Assembly (NCBI GenBank): GCA_029940215.1
Contig: JAOZRE010000004.1
Span: forward strand, 1 to 44,381
DNA: 44,381 bases
Reading direction: 5' to 3'
Origin: a bacterium
GTDB taxonomy: Bacteria; SAR324; XYD2-FULL-50-16
Part shown: in pieces, positions 33,866 to 43,995 of the stretch
How positions within the stretch are numbered: position 1 is the stretch's first letter
How the letters are laid out: every line of letters begins with the position of its first letter
Position numbers and translations under genes: made by a program
The notes under the pieces: model-generated
Databases searched by the model: none
What the model saw: only the letters and a program-made list of their open reading frames with translations
Told to the model about the DNA's origin: nothing

Positions 33866-35287
33866 TTACTTGCGCTGCCAGAATGTTTTTCCATCTCGGT
33901 CCTCCAGTTGTATGGAGGCTTCATTGAGCTGATCCCTTATCTGGTCAGCCATCGCCCAGTCTTTTTCATCCCGGGCCCGGTTCCGTTTTTCTATAAGCTG
34001 ATCGATCTGGTCATCGCTCAGTCCTGACGCTTCTTTTGCAATGCGCGGCGTTTTAAACCACTGTTCTGCTGGCACCTGCAGAATTCCCAGGATGTTGCCC
34101 AACTGGCGCAAGCGGTGATACATTGCGGTCATCTGTGGGTCATCCGCTGGCATGGAGTTCAATGCCTTTGTTAAATCAAACAAAACTGCCATGGCCTGGG
34201 GTGTATTTAGATCATCAGTCATCGCTGCCATAAATCGGTCCCCGTATATCTCAGTATCATCAGATCCCGGCAAATCAGTCTCAACGGCCGGTCGACCGCT
34301 GGCTGACTCGAATTTCTCCAGAGCACCATAAATGCGGTCCAGTCCCTCTGCACTTTTTATCAGGGCCGCCCGGCTGAAGTCCAGTGGTTGCCGATACTGT
34401 GCGGACAGGACGAAGAACCGGATCAGTTCCGGGTGATAGATTTGTACCAGGTCTGCGATGGTGGCGAAATTTCCAAGGGATTTTGACATCTTCTGGTTTT
34501 CGATCTTGATCATTCCGTTGTGCATCCAGTAATTTGCGTATTTGTGACCATTTGCACATTCTGATTGTGCGATCTCATTTTCGTGATGTGGAAAAATCAG
34601 ATCGCTGCCACCAGCATGAATGTCAAATGAGGTGCCCAGGTGATGAGCACTCATGGCAGAACATTCGATATGCCAGCCCGGCCTGCCTGGTCCCCAGGGG
34701 CTTTCCCAGGTCGGCTCGTTGGGTTTGGCCGCTTTCCAGAGCGCAAAATCCAGCGCATCCTCTTTCTCTTCATCGACCTCAACCCGGATACCGGACATCA
34801 ATTCGTCGATTTTCTTCCCACTGAGCTTGCCGTAAGCATCGAACTTTCTGACTCGGAAAAAGACCGAGCCGTTCACCTCGTAAGCAAATCCCTTTTCAAT
34901 CAGTTTTTCCGTTATTTTAATAATATCGCCTATATGATGGGTCGCCCGGGGAGCGATATCCGGCGTTTCGATTCCCAGTGCCGCCATATCGTCGTCGTGG
35001 GACTTGATGTTCTCCTCCGCCAGCTCATCAACCGTGATATTTCTTTCGTTGGCACGATTGATCATCTTGTCATCGATATCGGTGTAGTTTTTGACATAGG
35101 TGACATCATACCCCGCAGCCACAAAAACCCGACGCAGTACATCAAAGTTGATCCCACCCCTGGCATGTCCCAGATGACAATGATCATAAACGGTCACTCC
35201 GCAGTTATAAATTTTCACCTTCCCTGGTTCAAGCGGTTTAAAGACCTCTTTTTTATTGCTGAATGTATTGTAGAGTTTAATTTCCAT
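33866..35287 (-). CDS. cysS: Cysteine-tRNA ligase
   Basis: CG.TVYD..HLGHAR, DFALWK, GRPGWHIECSAM, FPHHENE, KMSKS motifs. Confidence 0.98.
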   Translation of the reverse strand: MEIKLYNTFSNKKEVFKPLEPGKVKIYNCGVTVYDHCHLGHARGGINFDVLRRVFVAAGYDVTYVKNYTDIDDKMINRANERNITVDELAEENIKSHDDDMAALGIETPDIAPRATHHIGDIIKITEKLIEKGFAYEVNGSVFFRVRKFDAYGKLSGKKIDELMSGIRVEVDEEKEDALDFALWKAAKPNEPTWESPWGPGRPGWHIECSAMSAHHLGTSFDIHAGGSDLIFPHHENEIAQSECANGHKYANYWMHNGMIKIENQKMSKSLGNFATIADLVQIYHPELIRFFVLSAQYRQPLDFSRAALIKSAEGLDRIYGALEKFESASGRPAVETDLPGSDDTEIYGDRFMAAMTDDLNTPQAMAVLFDLTKALNSMPADDPQMTAMYHRLRQLGNILGILQVPAEQWFKTPRIAKEASGLSDDQIDQLIEKRNRARDEKDWAMADQIRDQLNEASIQLEDRDGKTFWQRK

Positions 35288-35381
35288 TGTCTTGTGATTC
35301 GGATGATATAAATTATTATTTTTTAAAAAAGTTGTTCACCCCTGAGGTACGAAGCCCATGGAGATGAAATCCCAGCACTGA

Positions 35382-35555
35382 GTGTCTGTTATGAGTCCGG
35401 TGAAATTGCTTGGAGAAGTTTCGTAGATGATCTTGACGACGTTGAGCGGCCGAAACTCCTCCTGTTTGTCGAGTAGCGAGTTTGGGGTTTAAGCGAAATG
35501 CGTCTTAGATCATCTTGAAACGGATCCGTTATTTTACAGGGCTCATAACAGGCAC
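35382..35555 (+). repeat. Structured rod-like palindromic element, copy 2
   Basis: GTGTCTGTTATGAGTCC/GGGCTCATAACAGGCAC outer stem. Shares GATGATCTT, GAGCGGCCGAAA, AGCGAGTTTGGG, AGCGAAATG and TAGATCATCTTGAAA with 144-315. Confidence 0.85.
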
Positions 35556-35839
35556 GGAGTAGCCTCACGGATACTGTCCTCCCCGGCAACCCTGCTGAAT
35601 CAGGACATTCCGTCAGATCAGTCTGATAGCCTTTTATTGTAGATCTTTGACTGCTTATGATCAACCCCATTCTAGCTGCTCTTTCCTGAAATGATGCCCT
35701 CAATTCAATCGGAGCGGGACGAAAGATTCACCAATACCTGAGATGATGGCAGCCTTTTCCACCGGCGGTAACCGCCCTCAATCCCGTATCCATAGCCGGT
35801 CTATTTCTGTCACATTATGCACTGGATCAATTTACCCTT

Positions 35840-35880
35840 TCCGTTTATCATCGATTGTGGACCGTTTATCAACGATTGTG
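35840..35880 (+). promoter_or_regulatory. Putative LytTR-type tandem binding site upstream of the caspase-like gene
   Basis: CCGTTTATCA(T/A)CGATTGTG repeated at 35841 and 35862 (21 bp period). Confidence 0.65.
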
Positions 35881-35996
35881 CACCAATCCGGTGTTTCCCG
35901 GTAGCATAGTCCTGACAACAGTGGCAGAAGCTATCCGTTCATTTTATCGGCACCTTTACTATTTAGACTTTCACCTTGATTCAATCCCCTGGTATC

Positions 35997-38180
35997 ATGG
36001 GCAAACGACTGAGTTTCATATTGATAGTGGCCATACTGGCAGCAGGCAGTTTATTCAGGCCCGCCCATGCCGAACCGGCTCCGTTTAGGGTCCTGCTGCA
36101 TTCAGGGTCTATATTTTTGCTGGATAACCAGCAAAAGAGGGTTCCGGCCACTGTCGGCCAGGAGATTACACGCGGGCAATACGCTCAGATCGAAGTGACT
36201 CCCGGCAGCAGGCTTTATTTACAAAAAGGACAGAACCTGCTGCTGTTGGATGTTGCCGGAATATTCAAACTGGTTGATCTTGAGAAGGGGCTTGAACCGC
36301 GATTGTCCAACGCCCTGCAGTTTCTCAGCGCCCTGACCGAACCCCGTCATTTCACCCGCCAGGTTAAAGCCAGGGGAAGAGAGGAGTCCACAGCGGCGGC
36401 TGATTCGGTTTTTTTCAACGACGTATGGGAACGAATCGCCCTCAGTGAGCCGTCATCGTCAATTCCGGTCGCCACTGAGGACGCCCTATCCGCCGCTGCC
36501 TGGTTTCATCAGCAGGGGAAACCGAACCGGACGGCTTATATCCTGGAACGTCTGGACACAACCACTCATCCGCAGAACCCTTTCTACCAACAGCTTCGAA
36601 ACGATTCATTGAGGGGGGTGCCACTGGCCGGGATTAACGCCGAGATTGAAGATACCAGGCAATCCACCAGGAGCCGACTCAACCGATTTCGGTATCAGGC
36701 TCTGCTGATCGGGGTCAACCAGTATGATCATCCTGCCTGGCAGACTCTGGACAGTCCTGTTGCCGACATTCGATCCATTCGGGAGATGCTGATTGACCGG
36801 TACCGCTTTCATCCAAACGATATCATCTCCCTTGAAAATCCGACTTTCAGCCAGGTCATTGACGGATTTCAGCAGCTGAAGAAAACCGTTGGTCCCCAAA
36901 CCCGACTGATGATCTATTACGCCGGGCACGGTTATTACCCGGCCGACGAGGATGAGGGATACTGGATTCCAAGGAATGGGGGCGATCCCGATACTCAGCA
37001 GTTTTTTATCCCCACCAGCATCATCCTCAGCAAGATGAAAGCCATCAAGAGTCAGCAAACCCTTTTGATAACAGACTCCTGCTTCAGCGGCTCCCTGATC
37101 CGAAAATCCAGGGGGGCAGCTGTTGACTCCGGATTTTATCGTGAGCTGTCCAGCAAAAAAAGCAGGCAGATCATCACCTCAGGCGGACTCGAGCCGGTAA
37201 GTGACAGTGGTGGTGGCATCCATTCCGTATTCGCAGGTAACCTGCTGCAGATCCTGTCAGAAGAACGCAGCGACCCGCTCAGTGCTTCGGAACTGGCCAT
37301 TGAGCTGCGAAAATCACTGAAAAACACCGGAGTCGATCAGACACCCGCCTACGGACGACTGCACAGCGCAGATGATGAGAACGGCGAATTTTTCTTCGTC
37401 CAGAAAGGGCAAACCCCTCTTTCAGCAGAGAAGCAGGTATCCAGAAAACCGCCGGCAAAACCGGAGGCTCCCGAAAACAGCCTGGATATTATCGGGATGA
37501 CAAATCCGCCTGTCAATGACGGATCAGCTTTTCAGTCAGCCGGGGTCCAAAACTGGAGGAGTATCGGACTGTTCGTTCACCAGGGAAACATGGAGTACAA
37601 CTATTTGTACACCCCGGATTCAGGAGCAGCTGAAACCGTCAGAATATCTGCGTCTCTTGAAGGAACCGGCCTTAAAGCCGAGGTCCGCCGTACCAATCAC
37701 AAGGGAGGATACGGACTGAGTTTCGATCTGGGACAATTCGCCCGAATCCATACCTGCACTGAAAATGACAGCGTACTATCTAACATCGGGATCAAAACCT
37801 GTGATAGCGCAGACTATGAGGGCAACTCCGACAAGACCTCACTCTCCGGGCTGTTTTCGCACCTGAGTATGTTTGCCGATTACAGCGTTCTACTCTGGCG
37901 CGAGATCAGTGTACAATTGGGAGGATCCGTTCAGTACCAATACTATACGCTTAACAACTTCCTGGAACAGGGGTCGCTTAATTCAAGTACCATCGGGGCA
38001 TGTGGTAAGAGCGGGGTGACCTATCGCAAGGATCGCTGGCATACCCGTTTTTTTCTGGATTTCTGCCTGACTACATTTGAACTCGGCGGATCCCTGCATG
38101 AATTGAACGAGACACATGCCAGCGATGTCAGGTTGCTGGCTAACCTGAGCGCGGGTCTTGCTGCCGGCTTTCAATTTTGA
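35997..38180 (+). CDS. Secreted caspase-family (peptidase C14) protein with an N-terminal beta-rich domain and a C-terminal probable outer-membrane beta-barrel. Start refined to 35997.
   Basis: Signal peptide ending A-H-A; ALLIG.N.Y, IYYAGHG (His), ITDSCFSG (Cys), HSVF, QTP; Pro/Lys-rich linker; amphipathic strands ending in ...AGFQF. Confidence 0.85.
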   Translation: MGKRLSFILIVAILAAGSLFRPAHAEPAPFRVLLHSGSIFLLDNQQKRVPATVGQEITRGQYAQIEVTPGSRLYLQKGQNLLLLDVAGIFKLVDLEKGLEPRLSNALQFLSALTEPRHFTRQVKARGREESTAAADSVFFNDVWERIALSEPSSSIPVATEDALSAAAWFHQQGKPNRTAYILERLDTTTHPQNPFYQQLRNDSLRGVPLAGINAEIEDTRQSTRSRLNRFRYQALLIGVNQYDHPAWQTLDSPVADIRSIREMLIDRYRFHPNDIISLENPTFSQVIDGFQQLKKTVGPQTRLMIYYAGHGYYPADEDEGYWIPRNGGDPDTQQFFIPTSIILSKMKAIKSQQTLLITDSCFSGSLIRKSRGAAVDSGFYRELSSKKSRQIITSGGLEPVSDSGGGIHSVFAGNLLQILSEERSDPLSASELAIELRKSLKNTGVDQTPAYGRLHSADDENGEFFFVQKGQTPLSAEKQVSRKPPAKPEAPENSLDIIGMTNPPVNDGSAFQSAGVQNWRSIGLFVHQGNMEYNYLYTPDSGAAETVRISASLEGTGLKAEVRRTNHKGGYGLSFDLGQFARIHTCTENDSVLSNIGIKTCDSADYEGNSDKTSLSGLFSHLSMFADYSVLLWREISVQLGGSVQYQYYTLNNFLEQGSLNSSTIGACGKSGVTYRKDRWHTRFFLDFCLTTFELGGSLHELNETHASDVRLLANLSAGLAAGFQF

Positions 38181-38200
38181 CAGCACCGCCGGATGGTTTC

Positions 38201-38234
38201 ACCTTTAATCAACAGTTTTTGACCGTTTATCAAC
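38201..38234 (+). promoter_or_regulatory. Putative LytTR-type tandem binding site upstream of the OMP gene
   Basis: ACCTTTAATCAAC (38201) and ACCGTTTATCAAC (38222), 21 bp period, same core as 35861. Confidence 0.65.
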
Positions 38235-38399
38235 GGGACAATGAAATTCACAACCCGATTGCAGAGAATGGGTTTAACACATTGCAATCAGGAGAGGGAG
38301 AGTTGCTCTCGACTCCAGCAGAATTTCACCCCGGATTGTTCGGTCAAAATTGAGACCGTTTGAATCCTGATTAAAGAAAAACATCAACATGGTAGAAAA

Positions 38400-39188
38400 A
38401 TGACAACAGCAATCAAACCACGCAAATGGGGAGTTATCCTCTTAATCCTGTTTATGGCGACCATAGGCCATCCCCTTTATGCCTCATCGGACACAGATTC
38501 AGACAACGAGATAGCGAGTTCCTTTCTCCGACAGAACGAGATCGGTACCTCCCGACCATTTCAAGCTCAGTTTATGCTGTCAGCAGGTGGTTCGTACCAT
38601 AATCGGTCGATTAGCCCTTCTGCCGCTCTTCATCTTGGATATCGGTTTTCCAAACTGATGTACCTGGGCTTGACTTCCCAGGCCTTCTACAATGACACTG
38701 CGAGCCTGAACGACGACGCAAACAAGCGGTACGACGATGACGAAGTTTACGGTCAGGAAGGCGCCAAGGAGACAACGATCAATACCGACCCTCGGCATCT
38801 ACTTGAGATGCGGTTTTTCCCCTTCCCGTTCGGACTTTATTTTTCTGCCGGTTTAATGCACATCGGATATGAAAAAATCGTTACTGAGTTCAAGAGCCGT
38901 TCACGGATTATCAACGAAACCGAGTACGATACCGGGCTAACAACAACCCTGGAGTACAAGGAGTGGACCGGAGCAGCCACCGGTATCGGTTTTCATCACC
39001 TGTTTTCCAACGGCCTTTCACTGAGCAGCGGCCTTAATATCGGGCTGAACATACAGAAACCAGAAATCACCATCGAAAGTGATGAGGACATAATCACAGA
39101 AGACCTGGAGGAGTGGGAGTCGCAAATCGAAGCCAACGAGAAACGGGTACCACTTATGTTCCACATCGGGGTAGGGTACGCCTTTTAG
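38400..39188 (+). CDS. Outer-membrane beta-barrel protein of unknown function
   Basis: Signal peptide, alternating amphipathic strands, C-terminal IGVGYAF beta-signal. Confidence 0.75.
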   Translation: MTTAIKPRKWGVILLILFMATIGHPLYASSDTDSDNEIASSFLRQNEIGTSRPFQAQFMLSAGGSYHNRSISPSAALHLGYRFSKLMYLGLTSQAFYNDTASLNDDANKRYDDDEVYGQEGAKETTINTDPRHLLEMRFFPFPFGLYFSAGLMHIGYEKIVTEFKSRSRIINETEYDTGLTTTLEYKEWTGAATGIGFHHLFSNGLSLSSGLNIGLNIQKPEITIESDEDIITEDLEEWESQIEANEKRVPLMFHIGVGYAF

Positions 39189-39934
39189 GCCTGGAGAATT
39201 TTCCTGACTGTCTTACGGTAAGCCCTGCTGACCGGGATTCGGGGAGCGTCCGGATGACGCAGGATCAGCATATCGTTTCCATGAAGCTCCCTGATTTTTG
39301 ACTGGTTGACCAGATAGCTGCGATGTACCTGGATAAAACGGCTGTTTTCAAGCTCCTTAATGGCTCTTTTCAGGGTTTTCTTTACCAGGTAGCAGGTTGA
39401 GTCTTCCAGGTGATATTCAAGGTAATTGGCGTTATTTTCCTGGGGCTGAACGAAGAGGATATCTTCGGGCCAGACATAGACCCTGCGGGACTCGCCATGC
39501 AGGTCCCTGAATTCAAGTAGCAGGTAGCCCAGTTGTTGTTTCTGCCGCTTCAGGCGTTCATCATGGGAGCGGCGCTCAATATCCTTGAAGGCCCGATCCA
39601 TGGCTTCACCAAATCGTTGTTTTTTAATGGGTTTAAGCAGGAAATCGGTGGGGTCATATGCGTATCCATCAATGGCATATTTGCTGAAGCCGGTGCAGAA
39701 AATCACCACTGGCGCACAGTTCAGACGGCCCAGCATTTCGAAACCGTTGAGTTCAGGCATTTCGATGTCGACAAAAACCAGGTCGGGTTGCAGCTCATTG
39801 ATACCCTGAAGACCGCTCAGACCGTCGGCAAATGTGGCAACAACTTCAACATTCGGATATGATACCAACTGCTCCCTGATTTCGATAACAGCAAACTCTT
39901 CATCATCAACAATAATTGACCTGATAACCTGCAT
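39185..39934 (-). CDS. LytTR-family response regulator
   Basis: IVDDE, FVDIEMP (phospho-Asp), FLLKP; C-terminal FIQVHRSYLVN and IPVSR.Y. Confidence 0.95.
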   Translation of the reverse strand: MQVIRSIIVDDEEFAVIEIREQLVSYPNVEVVATFADGLSGLQGINELQPDLVFVDIEMPELNGFEMLGRLNCAPVVIFCTGFSKYAIDGYAYDPTDFLLKPIKKQRFGEAMDRAFKDIERRSHDERLKRQKQQLGYLLLEFRDLHGESRRVYVWPEDILFVQPQENNANYLEYHLEDSTCYLVKKTLKRAIKELENSRFIQVHRSYLVNQSKIRELHGNDMLILRHPDAPRIPVSRAYRKTVRKILQA

Positions 39935-39948
39935 AGACGGCTCCGGGG

Positions 39949-41724
39949 ATGAATCGATTGATCACTTTTTTGCTCCAACTGATTTCTGGTTTAAAGCTTA
40001 CGCGGCTCAAACCGGTCAGTCCAGCTTCCGGCCTTGTCATCATATCCATTGTATTATCAGCTCTGCTGATCTACCTGCAACCATCTCCCCTGGTTCAGGA
40101 CTGGGAACAGCGATTTCAATCCAATTTTCACCTGTTCAGCACTTTTTTCGGTACACCGAAAAGCGGTGTGTCTCCCATAGTCGTCGTACTGATCAATGAC
40201 GACTCGTTGCCCGAAGGTACCCCCCGCTCGCCCATTAACCGACACTGGCTCGGGTCATTGATCAACCGACTATCTGATCACCGACCGGCACTGATCGGCC
40301 TGAACATCCTACTCGACCGACCTCTGAATCCCGCGGATGATCAAACATTGTCCCGGGCGATTGCAGACAGCGGTCATGTTGTCATTCGCAATGATTCGAA
40401 CTATCCTGCCTTGGCCCGGTTTAGAGATGCCGCTCTCGACTACGGAAACCTGCGGTTCCGATTTGACTCTTCGGGATCTGTTCAAGAGATCTGTCATTCA
40501 TCCCTGACCTGTCGGGGTAATCGATTCTTTCACGCCCGACTGCTGAAACAAATCAACACCATTCCGGCTTTCAAGCATGATATCGCGGCCGCCGAGCCAC
40601 AGAACTGGTTGAGAATCAATTTTTCAGGCAATCGCCAGCTGTCTGAGGGAGGGCAGTCTGTCCGGTTCCCGATTTTTTACGCCAATGAACTGGATCAGGT
40701 TCCAGCAGGAGCCTTGCAGGGTAAAATCGTACTGATCGGTACCGGCTTTCCAGATCTGTATCCCCTGTACCGGACCCCTCTGGCTGCTGATGAACAGTTT
40801 CTACAGGAAACCGAAATTCTAGCACGGGTTGTCGACATGTTTCTGGGAAACCGGCTGATTAAACCCCTGCCGTTTATCTGGCCGGGAGTGATCATGCTGG
40901 CTGTTTTTTTGGGGCTTTCCTTTCTGCTATCAAGGAAGGGGATTCTCCGGGGTGTCTGGTTCACAGCCATTGCCCTTCCCATTCTGTTTCTGGCTGCAGC
41001 AGTTGCCCTCACCTTCTACAGGGTGGAAGTCCCCTTTGTGCTGCCTGCGGTCATGCTGTCCCTCTTTCTGGGAATCGGAATAATTCAACAAACCCTGCAG
41101 GAACGATTCTCCCGCCTTATGGCTGAGCTTAGTCTCAAGGATGCCAAGATCGATTTTCTGACAAACGAATTGCATACCCATCACCTGTTCAACGAACTCT
41201 CCCGACTCAATGTCATGATCGGGCAACACCCTGAATCGGCCCGGGCTTACCTGGTTGAATTTGCCGAGCTGCTCCGGGCTTCCTTGAAGTACGGTGATCA
41301 ATCCCGCGTACCAGTCAAGGTCCAGATGGATTATCTGGAAACCTATCTTCAGCAGCAGGGTATCATCCAAGGAGATAAGTTTCAGTTTTTCATTGATATA
41401 AAAGGGGATTTTGAAGAGGCACACGCGCCCTGGCATGTATTCTTTCCTCTTGTAGAAAATGCCGTTAAACAGTCAGAAGCTGTATGGCGAGCGCAACCGA
41501 ATCAACCAGCAAAGATCGAGATTGTATTATGGAAGGAGGGCAACCGGGTCCATTTCAGGGTTACAAACCCCTATCTGCCGGATGCCGGTATACAGTCCAC
41601 TGGAAAAGGGTTGGAGAACCTTGAAAATCGCTTGAAGTGGTCATACCCCAGGGGAGGGTACAAACTGTCGGGAAGCTCTCATGCACAGATCTGGACAGCG
41701 GACCTGGAGCTCCCCTTGAGTTAA
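39949..41724 (+). CDS. CHASE2-domain LytS/AlgZ-type sensor histidine kinase
   Basis: TM, then CHASE2 (IVVV.I.D, P..IGL.ILL, GKIVLIG), then 3 TM; HHLFN H-box, PLVENAVK N-box, TGKGL.N...RL G-box. Confidence 0.88.
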   Translation: MNRLITFLLQLISGLKLTRLKPVSPASGLVIISIVLSALLIYLQPSPLVQDWEQRFQSNFHLFSTFFGTPKSGVSPIVVVLINDDSLPEGTPRSPINRHWLGSLINRLSDHRPALIGLNILLDRPLNPADDQTLSRAIADSGHVVIRNDSNYPALARFRDAALDYGNLRFRFDSSGSVQEICHSSLTCRGNRFFHARLLKQINTIPAFKHDIAAAEPQNWLRINFSGNRQLSEGGQSVRFPIFYANELDQVPAGALQGKIVLIGTGFPDLYPLYRTPLAADEQFLQETEILARVVDMFLGNRLIKPLPFIWPGVIMLAVFLGLSFLLSRKGILRGVWFTAIALPILFLAAAVALTFYRVEVPFVLPAVMLSLFLGIGIIQQTLQERFSRLMAELSLKDAKIDFLTNELHTHHLFNELSRLNVMIGQHPESARAYLVEFAELLRASLKYGDQSRVPVKVQMDYLETYLQQQGIIQGDKFQFFIDIKGDFEEAHAPWHVFFPLVENAVKQSEAVWRAQPNQPAKIEIVLWKEGNRVHFRVTNPYLPDAGIQSTGKGLENLENRLKWSYPRGGYKLSGSSHAQIWTADLELPLS

Positions 41725-41741
41725 CGGGCTTGCTTTTGCTT

Positions 41742-43790
41742 TCAACCCGCCAGTTCTGTATTTCGAAGGCGAATTTTCTGTATCAGGAAGACAAAGGCTA
41801 CGATCGCAAGTCCGATCAGGTAATTGGCATACTTATTCCCGAACAGCACGGGAACCCAGTCCGAAAAGGCAAGCGGATGAAAGAGAATAACCGTCGCCAC
41901 CAGCAGCAGCGGAACATCATACCAACGGTTCTGGATAATGAACCAACCCTGAACCGCACTCGAAAAGGCAAAAGCCCCCACCGTCGCCATCAGGAATATC
42001 CCAATGCCCAGAGGCCAGCTGTTAATATTATGCAGGATCAGGTCTGAGTTGAAAACAAACATGAAGGGGATAATCGCTGTCCGCAGATCATATAAAAACC
42101 CCTGGATTCCGGTCGGAATCGGATCAGATCCGGCTATCGCTGCCGCCGCGTATGATGCCAGACCGACCGGCGGCGTGTCATCCGCCAGAATACCGAAATA
42201 AAAACAGAACAGGTGAGCAGACATTAAAGGGATAACGAAGTTGTAGAGATTTCCAACAGTGACAATAATCGGTGCAGTCAGGGAAGCCATGACAATATAA
42301 GTCGCCGTCGTAGGCAAACCCATCCCGAGCAGTAAACTGGCGATTGCCGTAATCAGCAGTAACAGGAAAATATTCCCTGCCGCAAGGGTCTCAACAATCT
42401 GGGTTATCATACCACCCAGTCCCATCCCGACAATTCCCACGATAATGCCAGCCGCAGCACATGCCATCCCGACAGCCATCATATTTTTCGCGCCCCTCTG
42501 CAGGCCGCTACCTACCAACAGAATACTGTTAATAATGGCTTGTTTGAAGCTTTGGCCCTGCTGAAACGATTTTCGAATCTCCTGGTAGAAAATAATGGCG
42601 ATCAGCAATAGAATAGCCCGGTAAGCCGATAGTTCCGGTGAGTGCCGCAAAACCACCAGTTCAACAATCAACCAGCTGATAGGAATCAGATAATGAATAC
42701 CGGCTTTCAGGACCTTGAAAAAATCAGGCAGATCCTCTTTCATCAGTCCTTTCATCCCCAGCTTGCTGGCCTCCAGATGCGTCACATAAAAGAGGGCAAA
42801 ATAGGAAACAAAGGCGGGAATGGCTGCGGCTTTGACCACTGCGATATAGGGTACATTGACATATTCAGCGATGATGAAGGCAGCTGCCCCCATAATGGGC
42901 GGCATCAACTGCCCGTCCGTGCTGGCCGCAACTTCAATCGCTGCTGCTTTTTTCGCTGGATACCCCACCTTTTTCATCAGCGGAATGGTAAATGTTCCAG
43001 TCGTTACAATATTCGCAATACTCGACCCTGACACCAGACCGGAAAGACCGCTGGAAACAACCGCTGCTTTCGCCGGTCCCCCCTTGTACTTACCAAGCAG
43101 GGCCATGGCCAGATCGGTGAAAAACTGCCCGGCACCCGCCTTGTCAAGCATGGATCCCAGCAGCACAAAAAGGAACACGATGGTGGCAGACACTCCCAGG
43201 GGAATCCCATAAATCCCCTCTGTGGATAGCGCAATCTGGTTGAGATACTTTGTCAGCGACACACCCTGAAATGCCAGAACCGAAGGCATATAAGGGCCGA
43301 AAAAGGAGTAAGCCGTAAAAACCAGGGCGATGATCGGCAGAGCCGGACCAATGGAACGGCGTGTGGCTTCCAGCAGAATCACGATCAGGAAGCTCCCGAT
43401 GACAAGATCCCTGGTGATGGGACTTCCGGCCCGGAAAGCCAATCCCTGTCTGTCCAGCATAATATATAGAGACACCCCCACCCCGACAATGGCGAGTAAG
43501 TAGTCAAAAACAGGAATGCGCCCTGTGGCATGAAACAGCCCCAGAAATCTTCTGGGCTTTTGGGTAAGGGGAATATTCAGGAAAATTAGCGCCATGGCAA
43601 ATGCCAGGTGGATGGCACGAATCGCGACGCTGTCCAGTATCAGAAAGCTGGCCAACGACAACTGAAACAATGACCATCCTACCGCGATCGCCCCAATCAA
43701 AAACTGTTCATGCTGAAGCAAATCCCTCAGCTCTCCTGTCTCCTTTTTCAGTATGTTCTCAGCAGATTCAATCTTTTTCCCAGTCGCCAT
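41742..43790 (-). CDS. TRAP transporter fused 4TM/12TM permease (TAXI-type DctQM)
   Basis: GGPAKAAV, SGSS.AN..TTG..TIPLM, Q.MPPIMGAAAF, LGMGLPTTA.Y, AD.TPPV motifs. Confidence 0.93.
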   Translation of the reverse strand: MATGKKIESAENILKKETGELRDLLQHEQFLIGAIAVGWSLFQLSLASFLILDSVAIRAIHLAFAMALIFLNIPLTQKPRRFLGLFHATGRIPVFDYLLAIVGVGVSLYIMLDRQGLAFRAGSPITRDLVIGSFLIVILLEATRRSIGPALPIIALVFTAYSFFGPYMPSVLAFQGVSLTKYLNQIALSTEGIYGIPLGVSATIVFLFVLLGSMLDKAGAGQFFTDLAMALLGKYKGGPAKAAVVSSGLSGLVSGSSIANIVTTGTFTIPLMKKVGYPAKKAAAIEVAASTDGQLMPPIMGAAAFIIAEYVNVPYIAVVKAAAIPAFVSYFALFYVTHLEASKLGMKGLMKEDLPDFFKVLKAGIHYLIPISWLIVELVVLRHSPELSAYRAILLLIAIIFYQEIRKSFQQGQSFKQAIINSILLVGSGLQRGAKNMMAVGMACAAAGIIVGIVGMGLGGMITQIVETLAAGNIFLLLLITAIASLLLGMGLPTTATYIVMASLTAPIIVTVGNLYNFVIPLMSAHLFCFYFGILADDTPPVGLASYAAAAIAGSDPIPTGIQGFLYDLRTAIIPFMFVFNSDLILHNINSWPLGIGIFLMATVGAFAFSSAVQGWFIIQNRWYDVPLLLVATVILFHPLAFSDWVPVLFGNKYANYLIGLAIVAFVFLIQKIRLRNTELAG

Positions 43791-43995
43791 GCAACCCCTT
43801 TATCATCGTTTAAGATTATTCAGTAAAAAGGCCCGTACCTTAACCATATAATGATAGGACACCCAGACTACTCCTATCAGCTGGTTTCTACTATATTTTT
43901 ACTGAGGACGCAAGAAAAAGATCAGGCGGAGGGGGTACACAATAGGCGTTGTAAAGCAGGGGGGTGGTGTCCCGTAACTCAATACGGATCATCGG

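Follow-up and report, generated by a model that had tools for sequence, protein, structure and literature searches.

We describe a four-gene locus from an uncultured SAR324-type marine bacterium that we interpret, at roughly even odds, as a lineage-restricted envelope signaling module in which a tethered, caspase-like protease may act as co-sensor or signal generator. The four adjacent genes occupy less than 6 kb (35840..41724) of the 44,381-nucleotide stretch of contig JAOZRE010000004.1 that we analyzed, referred to below as the window. They encode a protease with a C14 domain (35997..38180, plus strand; 727 aa from the ATG at 35997, in an open reading frame (ORF) opening at TTG 35976), a small probable outer-membrane protein (OMP; 38400..39188, plus strand; 262 aa), a response regulator with REC and LytTR domains (39185..39934, minus strand; 249 aa) and a sensor histidine kinase with a CHASE2 domain (39949..41724, plus strand; 591 aa). 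A sequence-only reading of the window had proposed contiguous genes for a signal-peptide-bearing C14 protease with an intact His/Cys dyad and a barrel-type C-terminus, a second barrel protein, a LytTR regulator and a CHASE2 kinase. Pfam, AlphaFold2 (AF2) and Foldseek bore out the gene content, the domains, the dyad and the protease barrel, with the correction that the regulator gene lies on the minus strand.

As judged by comparative sequence data, the kinase and the protease form a conserved functional pair. The sequence-only reading had made co-occurrence of the four genes in other genomes its own test, and we found that the genes do co-occur: among the 15 CHASE2/LytS kinase loci examined, a LytTR gene stands head-to-head with the kinase in all 15, and a protease of the same family adjoins the kinase in 13, including three paralogous sets. 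Genome G001, five sister-genus genomes and G020, which belongs to another family, have orthologues of the kinase (42-59% identity); weaker paralogues (25-31% identity) occur in the sister genus. The gene order is protease-OMP-regulator/kinase in the window and in G020, and OMP-regulator/kinase-protease in the sister genus. One kinase locus (L015) is cut by a contig end, and a congener locus (L027) has the cysS-protease arrangement seen in the window. Only the orthologous set (7 loci) includes the small OMP. Identities among the kinases and among the proteases rise and fall together, with r 0.97 for the 66 non-independent pairs drawn from 12 loci. Within the phylum, a strong kinase match was found in 9 of 88 genomes and 4 of 43 genera, mostly in large genomes. 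Among the best 80 caspase-domain relatives in other genomes, seven loci carry kinase and regulator beside the protease, all of SAR324 type, and at 70 remote caspase loci (Bacteroidota, Acidobacteriota and others) the similarity is confined to the caspase domain. As for the paralogous regulator/kinase/protease sets of the sister genus (L022-L026 and L036), the L022 and L036 proteases carry PEGA domains ahead of the C-terminal aromatic end, and the L036 kinase was matched in two pieces, which may reflect a frameshift or a split gene.

A direct repeat with a 21-bp period had been reported in front of both outer-membrane genes, and we located it at 35841..35873 upstream of the protease gene (box 1, CCGTTTATCATC-N9-CCGTTTATCAAC) and at 38202..38234 upstream of the small OMP gene (box 2, CCTTTAATCAAC-N9-CCGTTTATCAAC), both on the plus strand and both putative LytTR boxes. 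The period resolves in each case into tandem 9-bp cores (CCGTTTRTC) with a 12-bp spacer; in box 1, the core CCGTTTATC stands on both sides of the spacer. LytTR targets are described as two direct repeats of 8-13 bp about 12 bp apart, typical of the family, and the core variants CCGTTCGTC and CCGTTTGTC, seen in related loci, are identical to AlgR sites given in the same source (PMC4064291). The layout at both window promoters follows this repeat rule and is kept in related loci.

We considered whether the repeats could be chance or the remnant of a duplicated promoter, with the adjacency of the genes functionally meaningless. A promoter and terminator scan returned site numbers no higher than in shuffles, and the unremarkable count of sigma-70-like sites speaks for such an explanation. 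However, the 13-nt unit, allowing up to 2 mismatches, has 12 matches in the window where 1.59 are expected, and 0 of 100 shuffles reached 12. In the whole 5.04-Mb assembly, the tandem pattern occurs at these two places only, and a reversed control gave 0. When the whole assembly was scanned at 20-22 bp spacings with a foreign matrix, made from 12 half-sites of other genomes only, box 1 ranked first (36.4 bits) and box 2 second (29.8), with the next match at 22.8. The boxes are moreover conserved across genera with diverged spacers, and they also precede a protease paralogue that is not linked to any kinase. We therefore regard a chance origin as extremely improbable.

In related genomes, the comparison indicates that the boxes follow genes, not position, across lineages. 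The congener locus L027 has boxes before the protease and OMP genes both, and its spacers and flanks have diverged from those of the window. In the sister genus, a box precedes the orthologous OMP gene in five of five genomes, and an unlinked protease paralogue is box-preceded as well, 175-215 bp upstream, at L029 (G007:C65) and L035. This paralogue (6800-9616 in L029; 6771-9619 in L035; G007:C65:257124) has the same N-terminal domain and caspase domain (48-50% identity), followed by pentapeptide repeats and an aromatic C-terminus, and no two-component genes were found near it. The five sister-genus genomes together gave 10 matches to the box pattern against 0 for the reversed control: five OMP promoters, one unlinked protease, one secreted unknown protein, one ArsR-like gene and two sites inside ORFs. 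In the paralogous sets, a variant box, TCGTTTATCGAC-N9-CATAAATCGAC, points at the kinase-protease pair. Because the repeats combine LytTR geometry with the conservation typical of cis-elements, control of the protease and OMP genes by the kinase/regulator pair is well supported; the feedback on expression that the sequence-only reading had proposed thus gains comparative support, with binding as the step that we infer. Separately, in L116 (G018:C19, 1501-3031), a tandem site that resembles a box with 3 mismatches precedes, by about 240 bp, a gene for a secreted unknown protein of more than 420 aa; this gene may be an extra regulon member in G018.

Candidate -10 hexamers, read by eye, lie downstream of both boxes on the plus strand: CATAGT at 35905..35910, 31 nt past the proximal repeat of box 1, and GAGAAT at 38264..38269, 29 nt past that of box 2. 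An identical CATAGT follows the proximal repeat by 28 nt in L018, L019 and L020, and L027 has the same GAGAAT at the same distance at its OMP box. Most sites, by the same reading, show such a hexamer (CATAGT, GAGAAT, TAAAAT or TAATGT) 28-31 nt past the proximal repeat. Approximately 200 bp upstream of box 1, a conserved island (35620..35690, plus strand) holds a weak pair of 21-bp period, CCTTTTATTGTA-N9-CTGCTTATGATC, found as a 65% copy of the repeat family, together with a block GATGATCAACCCCATTCT. It is one of only two conserved islands that align the cysS-protease spacer with that of L027, and it has no Rfam match. The weak pair may be a low-affinity distal site.

The domain content of the two regulatory proteins is clear. 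The regulator matches PF00072 (61.9 bits) and PF04397 (67.1 bits), that is, REC plus LytTR; its best NCBIfam score, for BtsR (132.5), is below the equivalog cut-off of 246, and LytR scores 74.1 against a cut-off of 375. The kinase matches CHASE2 (PF05226; 84.3 bits, cut-off 26.3) over residues 39-323 and PF06580 (42 bits, cut-off 25.2) over residues 399-477. Its parts follow in the order of a first transmembrane helix, a periplasmic CHASE2 domain, three transmembrane helices, a LytS/YehU-type His_kinase domain and ATPase motifs, where the transmembrane segments were read from hydrophobic stretches and the CHASE2 topology rule was taken from the literature (PMC3501461). All 11 aligned kinases retain His409/411, N504 and the GxGLxNLxxRL motif. 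The combination of CHASE2 with a LytS-type kinase is rare: a word-limited search of 5.8 billion proteins gave 44 matches, of which 40 clusters, the query included, have the CHASE2 plus PF06580 architecture, and their sources name all 40 merely "CHASE2 domain-containing protein". We found no published description of this combination in open-access full text or bioRxiv. A PF06580 kinase core paired with a REC and LytTR regulator is shared with AlgZ(FimS)/AlgR, BtsS/BtsR and LytS/LytR; unlike these systems, the pair described here has a periplasmic CHASE2 input, and the targets differ too. The named members of the LytS/YehU/AlgZ type use 5TM-Lyt multi-helix membrane inputs or GAF inputs.

The protease is a C14 member by profile, motifs and predicted fold, with putative activity and P1 specificity. 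It matches PF00656 (Peptidase C14) at 58.4 bits (E 1.1e-15, cut-off 21.4) over residues 242-460, and His311 (in YYAGHG) and Cys362 (in DSCFSG), which we take to be the catalytic dyad, are invariant in 7 of 7 orthologues. From a signal-peptide-like N-terminus (MGKRLSFILIVAILAAGSLFRPAHA), the chain is predicted to run through a small beta-sandwich, a TPR-like helical domain, the C14 caspase domain and a linker into an 8-stranded OmpA-like barrel. AF2 modelled with confidence the small beta domain, the helical domain, the caspase fold and eight long strands at 518-726; the linker of about 70 residues ahead of the barrel is of low confidence. The caspase domain matched metacaspases (7qp0, 8a53), MALT1 and caspase-3/-7 in Foldseek (E 2e-6 to 2e-4). 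For the barrel, the best matches were the OmpA transmembrane domain, Ail, OmpX and NspA (E 7e-8 to 1e-4 for the first three), and residues 478-734 matched no Pfam family at E up to 10. The barrel consists of eight antiparallel strands with a C-terminal aromatic residue; the window protease ends in F, and F, W or Y closes all 16 family proteases collected. We also considered a type Va autotransporter, whose 12-stranded barrel exports an N-terminal passenger and has a helical linker in its pore, and ruled it out: the model, of moderate confidence, has 8 strands rather than 12 and no pore helix, and Pfam gave no PF03797 match in the protease.

OmpA-type barrels have an even strand number and no export pore, and both their ends lie on the periplasmic side. 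Because the barrel has 8 strands, the protease should project into the periplasm and share that compartment with CHASE2; from this model, we think it likely that the caspase domain is oriented toward the periplasm and tethered under the outer membrane. When the N-terminal 207 residues were modelled separately with 16 family members, the confidence was high (pLDDT 86.7, pTM 0.83). Its first ~70 residues superpose on 5ix9 with Z 9.6 and a root-mean-square deviation of 2.3 A over 70 of 76 residues. This structure is the RIN plug, a periplasmic domain of a LapA-type adhesin (PMC5550230); the resemblance is one of fold, with no sequence relationship found (9% identity) and a Foldseek E of 0.038 only. 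The remainder is TPR-like with Z 5-6, within the noise range for helical repeats. A profile of the N-terminal domain retrieved 22 representatives only among 1.84 billion proteins; 19 of them are 620-990 aa long with the match beginning at most ~50 residues from the N-terminus, and the other three are fragments of 87-257 aa. A FecR (PF04773) identity for this part gave no Pfam match at E up to 10, and no FecR structure stood among the listed fold matches; we dropped the idea for want of support, which does not exclude it. Outside SAR324, the closest caspase-domain relatives (L037, L040, L063, L070, L082, L083 and others) occur in envelope contexts, with TPR N-termini, OmpA-family or PD40 neighbors, ECF sigma factors, and CsgG-, LpoB- and DUF4384-like parts, which suggests that caspase homologues of the periplasm or envelope make up a wider class.

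A caspase fold also raises the question of conflict or programmed death, in which envelope damage or phage attack, detected by CHASE2, would release the protease as an effector of killing or abortive infection, a role that has been proposed for other bacterial caspase systems. The best NCBIfam match of the caspase domain is the EACC1-associated type NF047832 (68.3 bits), caspase-CHASE2 fusions are described in conflict systems (PMC8195603), and a cluster with secreted putative metacaspases in Psychroflexus torquis lies on a genomic island and was tied to cell death by its authors (PMC3914696). However, the NCBIfam score is far under its cut-off of 140, and no NTPase, TRADD-N, EACC or other conflict partner was seen in the flanks (PADLOC not searched). 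Additionally, the flanks are of housekeeping type (cysS, TRAP transporter) and vary between genomes without mobile-element marks, and the protease is predicted to be secreted and anchored in the outer membrane rather than cytoplasmic. We consider a role in conflict quite improbable.

The small second-gene product is a probable outer-membrane beta-barrel by its sequence features. It has a signal-peptide-like N-terminus, alternating hydrophobic stretches and a C-terminus that reads GYAF in 6 of the 7 orthologues and GYSF in the other, and its language-model neighbors in the Atlas at 0.96-0.97 include OmpA_like and OMP_b-brl clusters, which we treat as a lead only. It had no Pfam match, and its profile found 0 matches among PDB sequences at E up to 10. 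The idea that it is a copy of the protease barrel was rejected (BLASTP E 8.2, hhalign probability 0.7%). The protein is acidic (pI 4.7; orthologue range 4.3-5.6), with a conserved DDDD cluster. In Sinorhizobium meliloti, NsrA, an outer-membrane barrel with acidic loops, is reported to relay a peptidic signal to CHASE2 cyclases (PMC7529298, PMC13001267). In that pathway, an outer-membrane beta-barrel acts upstream of an inner-membrane CHASE2 receptor, as the small OMP might here, with a signal of peptide or protein nature; the small OMP is likened to NsrA and its loops by acidic composition alone. The S. meliloti pathway differs in its cyclase and cAMP/Clr output, and no protease is known in it; our locus has a histidine kinase and a LytTR regulator.

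Taken together, our data lead us to a putative mechanism. The inner-membrane kinase would read a periplasmic cue via CHASE2 and phosphorylate the LytTR regulator, which would then bind the tandem AlgR-like 9-bp cores just upstream of the promoter and activate the protease and small OMP genes. The caspase-like protease, anchored at the outer membrane's inner face through its 8-stranded barrel and long flexible linker, would cleave a periplasmic or OMP-delivered protein, and CHASE2 would read the product or the state. Since the protease gene carries its own box, a positive feedback loop would be closed in this genome. That the regulator binds and activates at the boxes we consider highly probable; that the protease acts upstream of the kinase, and so might make or process a CHASE2 ligand as the sequence-only reading had suggested, we propose only tentatively. 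A more specific form of the proposal, in which CHASE2, at least here, would be a receptor for what a dedicated caspase-like protease does, and hence part of a proteolysis-gated, self-amplifying envelope sensor, is speculative and, in our estimate, rather unlikely. In that form, the TPR-like arm might capture a periplasmic protein or peptide, perhaps delivered through the acidic small OMP; a cleaved fragment or a protease-substrate complex would switch the CHASE2 kinase on, and the kinase would in turn raise protease and OMP levels.

Several observations led us to favor the protease as co-sensor over the protease as mere output: the kinase and the protease duplicate together, and CHASE2 pairs with caspase-fold proteins in other phyla, both as fusions and as neighbors. 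A Pfam sample of 60 ORFs from the remote caspase loci showed such neighbors. At L043 (5069-7819) and L073 (2427-7631), from Acidobacteriaceae and Bacteroidales metagenome-assembled genomes (MAGs), a CHASE2 protein of about 400 aa without an output domain lies directly beside secreted caspase homologues. In a Bacteroidota MAG (L090, 2385-9376), a Reg_prop/Y_Y_Y LytS-type kinase, with a sensor other than CHASE2, and a LytTR gene precede a caspase-FGE-sulfatase fusion. In the sister genus, the linked protease gene is placed behind the kinase without a box, and so it would be expressed with the sensor, not as a target, which again favors a co-sensor. The one studied CHASE2 input that we found, a peptidic signal arriving via an acidic outer-membrane barrel protein (PMC7529298, PMC13001267), favors it too.

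On the other hand, CHASE2 may respond to an external cue in which the protease has no part, perhaps a peptide or protein that the small OMP delivers as NsrA does; the regulator would then switch on an OMP and an envelope-remodeling protease, the latter being output without feedback on the sensor. Both box-bearing genes stand in classic target positions, the unlinked protease paralogue appears to be box-controlled too, the NsrA precedent needs no protease (PMC7529298), and the acidic small OMP resembles the NsrA loops. Such an output-only role, however, leaves unexplained why each duplicated kinase has its own adjoining protease, in one case without the OMP, why the linked protease behind the sister-genus kinase is box-less, and why output-less CHASE2 proteins lie beside caspases in other phyla. 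We hold this alternative to be possible and, on balance, somewhat unlikely. Our preference for the co-sensor stands at about one in three, with the output-only rival close behind. A complex prediction for protease residues 26-470 with CHASE2 residues 46-308 gave run scores of 0.00, 0.50 and 0.00, obtained without controls, and was not used as evidence.

Other observations weigh against the module as we propose it. Genome G078 encodes the kinase and regulator with no protease of the family and no OMP within 9 kb; at this locus (L107, G078:C15, 8323-18431), the kinase has 38% and the LytTR protein 52% identity, and a 1,967-aa CHAT/DUF7379/lipase-like protein is encoded 1.5 kb away. The three paralogous sets are without the small OMP, and the four-gene form is hence not universal. 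The sister-genus arrangement described above means that the protease gene is not always box-bearing. In G020 (L021), the repeat before the protease gene, CCATTGATC, is divergent and was left unscored by the matrix, and no recognizable repeat was found before the OMP gene. The full-length AF2 model of the protease is of low confidence overall (pLDDT 63.4, pTM 0.36), the barrel nature of the small OMP is read from indirect signs, and binding and activation by the regulator are read from geometry and conservation only. Finally, a protease that served as output and nothing more would be expected to be inherited together with the kinase just as well.

The tight layout of the locus may have regulatory consequences of its own. 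The regulator gene stop overlaps the small OMP gene stop by 4 bp (39185-39188), the two genes being convergent, and the regulator and kinase starts are divergent, head-to-head and 14 bp apart (39935-39948). Orthologous loci keep this layout, with head-to-head gaps between regulator and kinase from overlap to ~20 bp and tail-to-tail gaps between OMP and regulator from overlap to 39 bp, except for 766 bp in L019. Because the head-to-head arrangement is so tight, the regulator and kinase promoters must sit within each other's coding sequence. The convergent arrangement means, therefore, that box-driven transcription of the OMP gene would read antisense into the regulator gene, possibly as a built-in brake. 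By Pfam, the flanks hold housekeeping genes (cysS, a SpoU methylase and a fused TRAP transporter). In the assembly (5.04 Mb, 89% complete), each of the four genes is single-copy. The only match in an Rfam scan of 35000-42000 was snoRNA-like, scored below threshold and is put down to chance. One solitary box-like unit, CCCTTTATCATCG with 1 mismatch, occurs at 43796-43808, adjoining the start of the minus-strand TRAP transporter gene (41742..43790); a tandem partner is absent, and the unit is probably due to chance.

The sequence-only reading knew of no characterized system with this architecture, and we found none either; what has to be set beside that statement is an uncharacterized look-alike in Psychroflexus and the characterized pathway from an OMP to CHASE2 in S. 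meliloti. The frequent vicinity of CHASE2 sensors and caspase or CHAT proteases, which it gave as established, was seen again in L043, L073 and G078 and in fusions from the literature. In P. torquis ATCC 700755, genomic island 15 combines secreted putative metacaspases with a LytTR regulator and a CHASE2 protein; it belongs to another phylum, was drawn but not analyzed by its authors, and is compared here by the figure legend (PMC3914696). The caspase or metacaspase-CHASE2 fusions of cyanobacteria and of the EACC2 type also couple a caspase-fold protease to CHASE2 (PMC3501461, PMC8195603). As those sources depict them, the fusions are one polypeptide with the caspase in the cytoplasm and CHASE2 outside, whereas our locus encodes separate proteins, both predicted on the periplasmic side, with a transcriptional output. 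The Burkholderia "BiofilmReg" operon likewise encodes a secreted accessory protein beside a CHASE2 histidine kinase; that protein is of the LysM/FecR kind, the kinase of the HisKA type and the regulator CreB-like of the OmpR type, in contrast to the protease here (PMC5192318). LapG/LapD/LapA, DegS-RseA and RcsF serve us as working analogies in which periplasmic proteolysis or outer-membrane-anchored sensors address inner-membrane signaling. Unlike in the Lap system, where LapG is not a caspase, the protease here is caspase-like, and the locus has no LapD-like or sigma/anti-sigma partner.

All component families (C14, CHASE2, the PF06580 kinase core, LytTR and the OmpA-like barrel fold) are known. 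In open-access full text and bioRxiv, we found no published barrel-anchored periplasmic caspase with its own N-terminal domain, nor a box-controlled OMP of this kind. With this module, the bacterial caspase homologues known so far gain a form that is anchored by a barrel and predicted to be periplasmic. What CHASE2 senses has been open since the domain was named, and the sole worked example that we found involves a peptidic signal and an outer-membrane barrel protein; the module described here could help to show what is sensed. With kinase, regulator, two target promoters, protease and OMP together in less than 6 kb, the circuit could be rebuilt in a laboratory host, which would let the link between proteolysis and CHASE2 be tested directly. 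If true, a proteolysis-gated CHASE2 would account for the fact that CHASE2 is repeatedly paired, in several phyla, with caspase or CHAT proteases.

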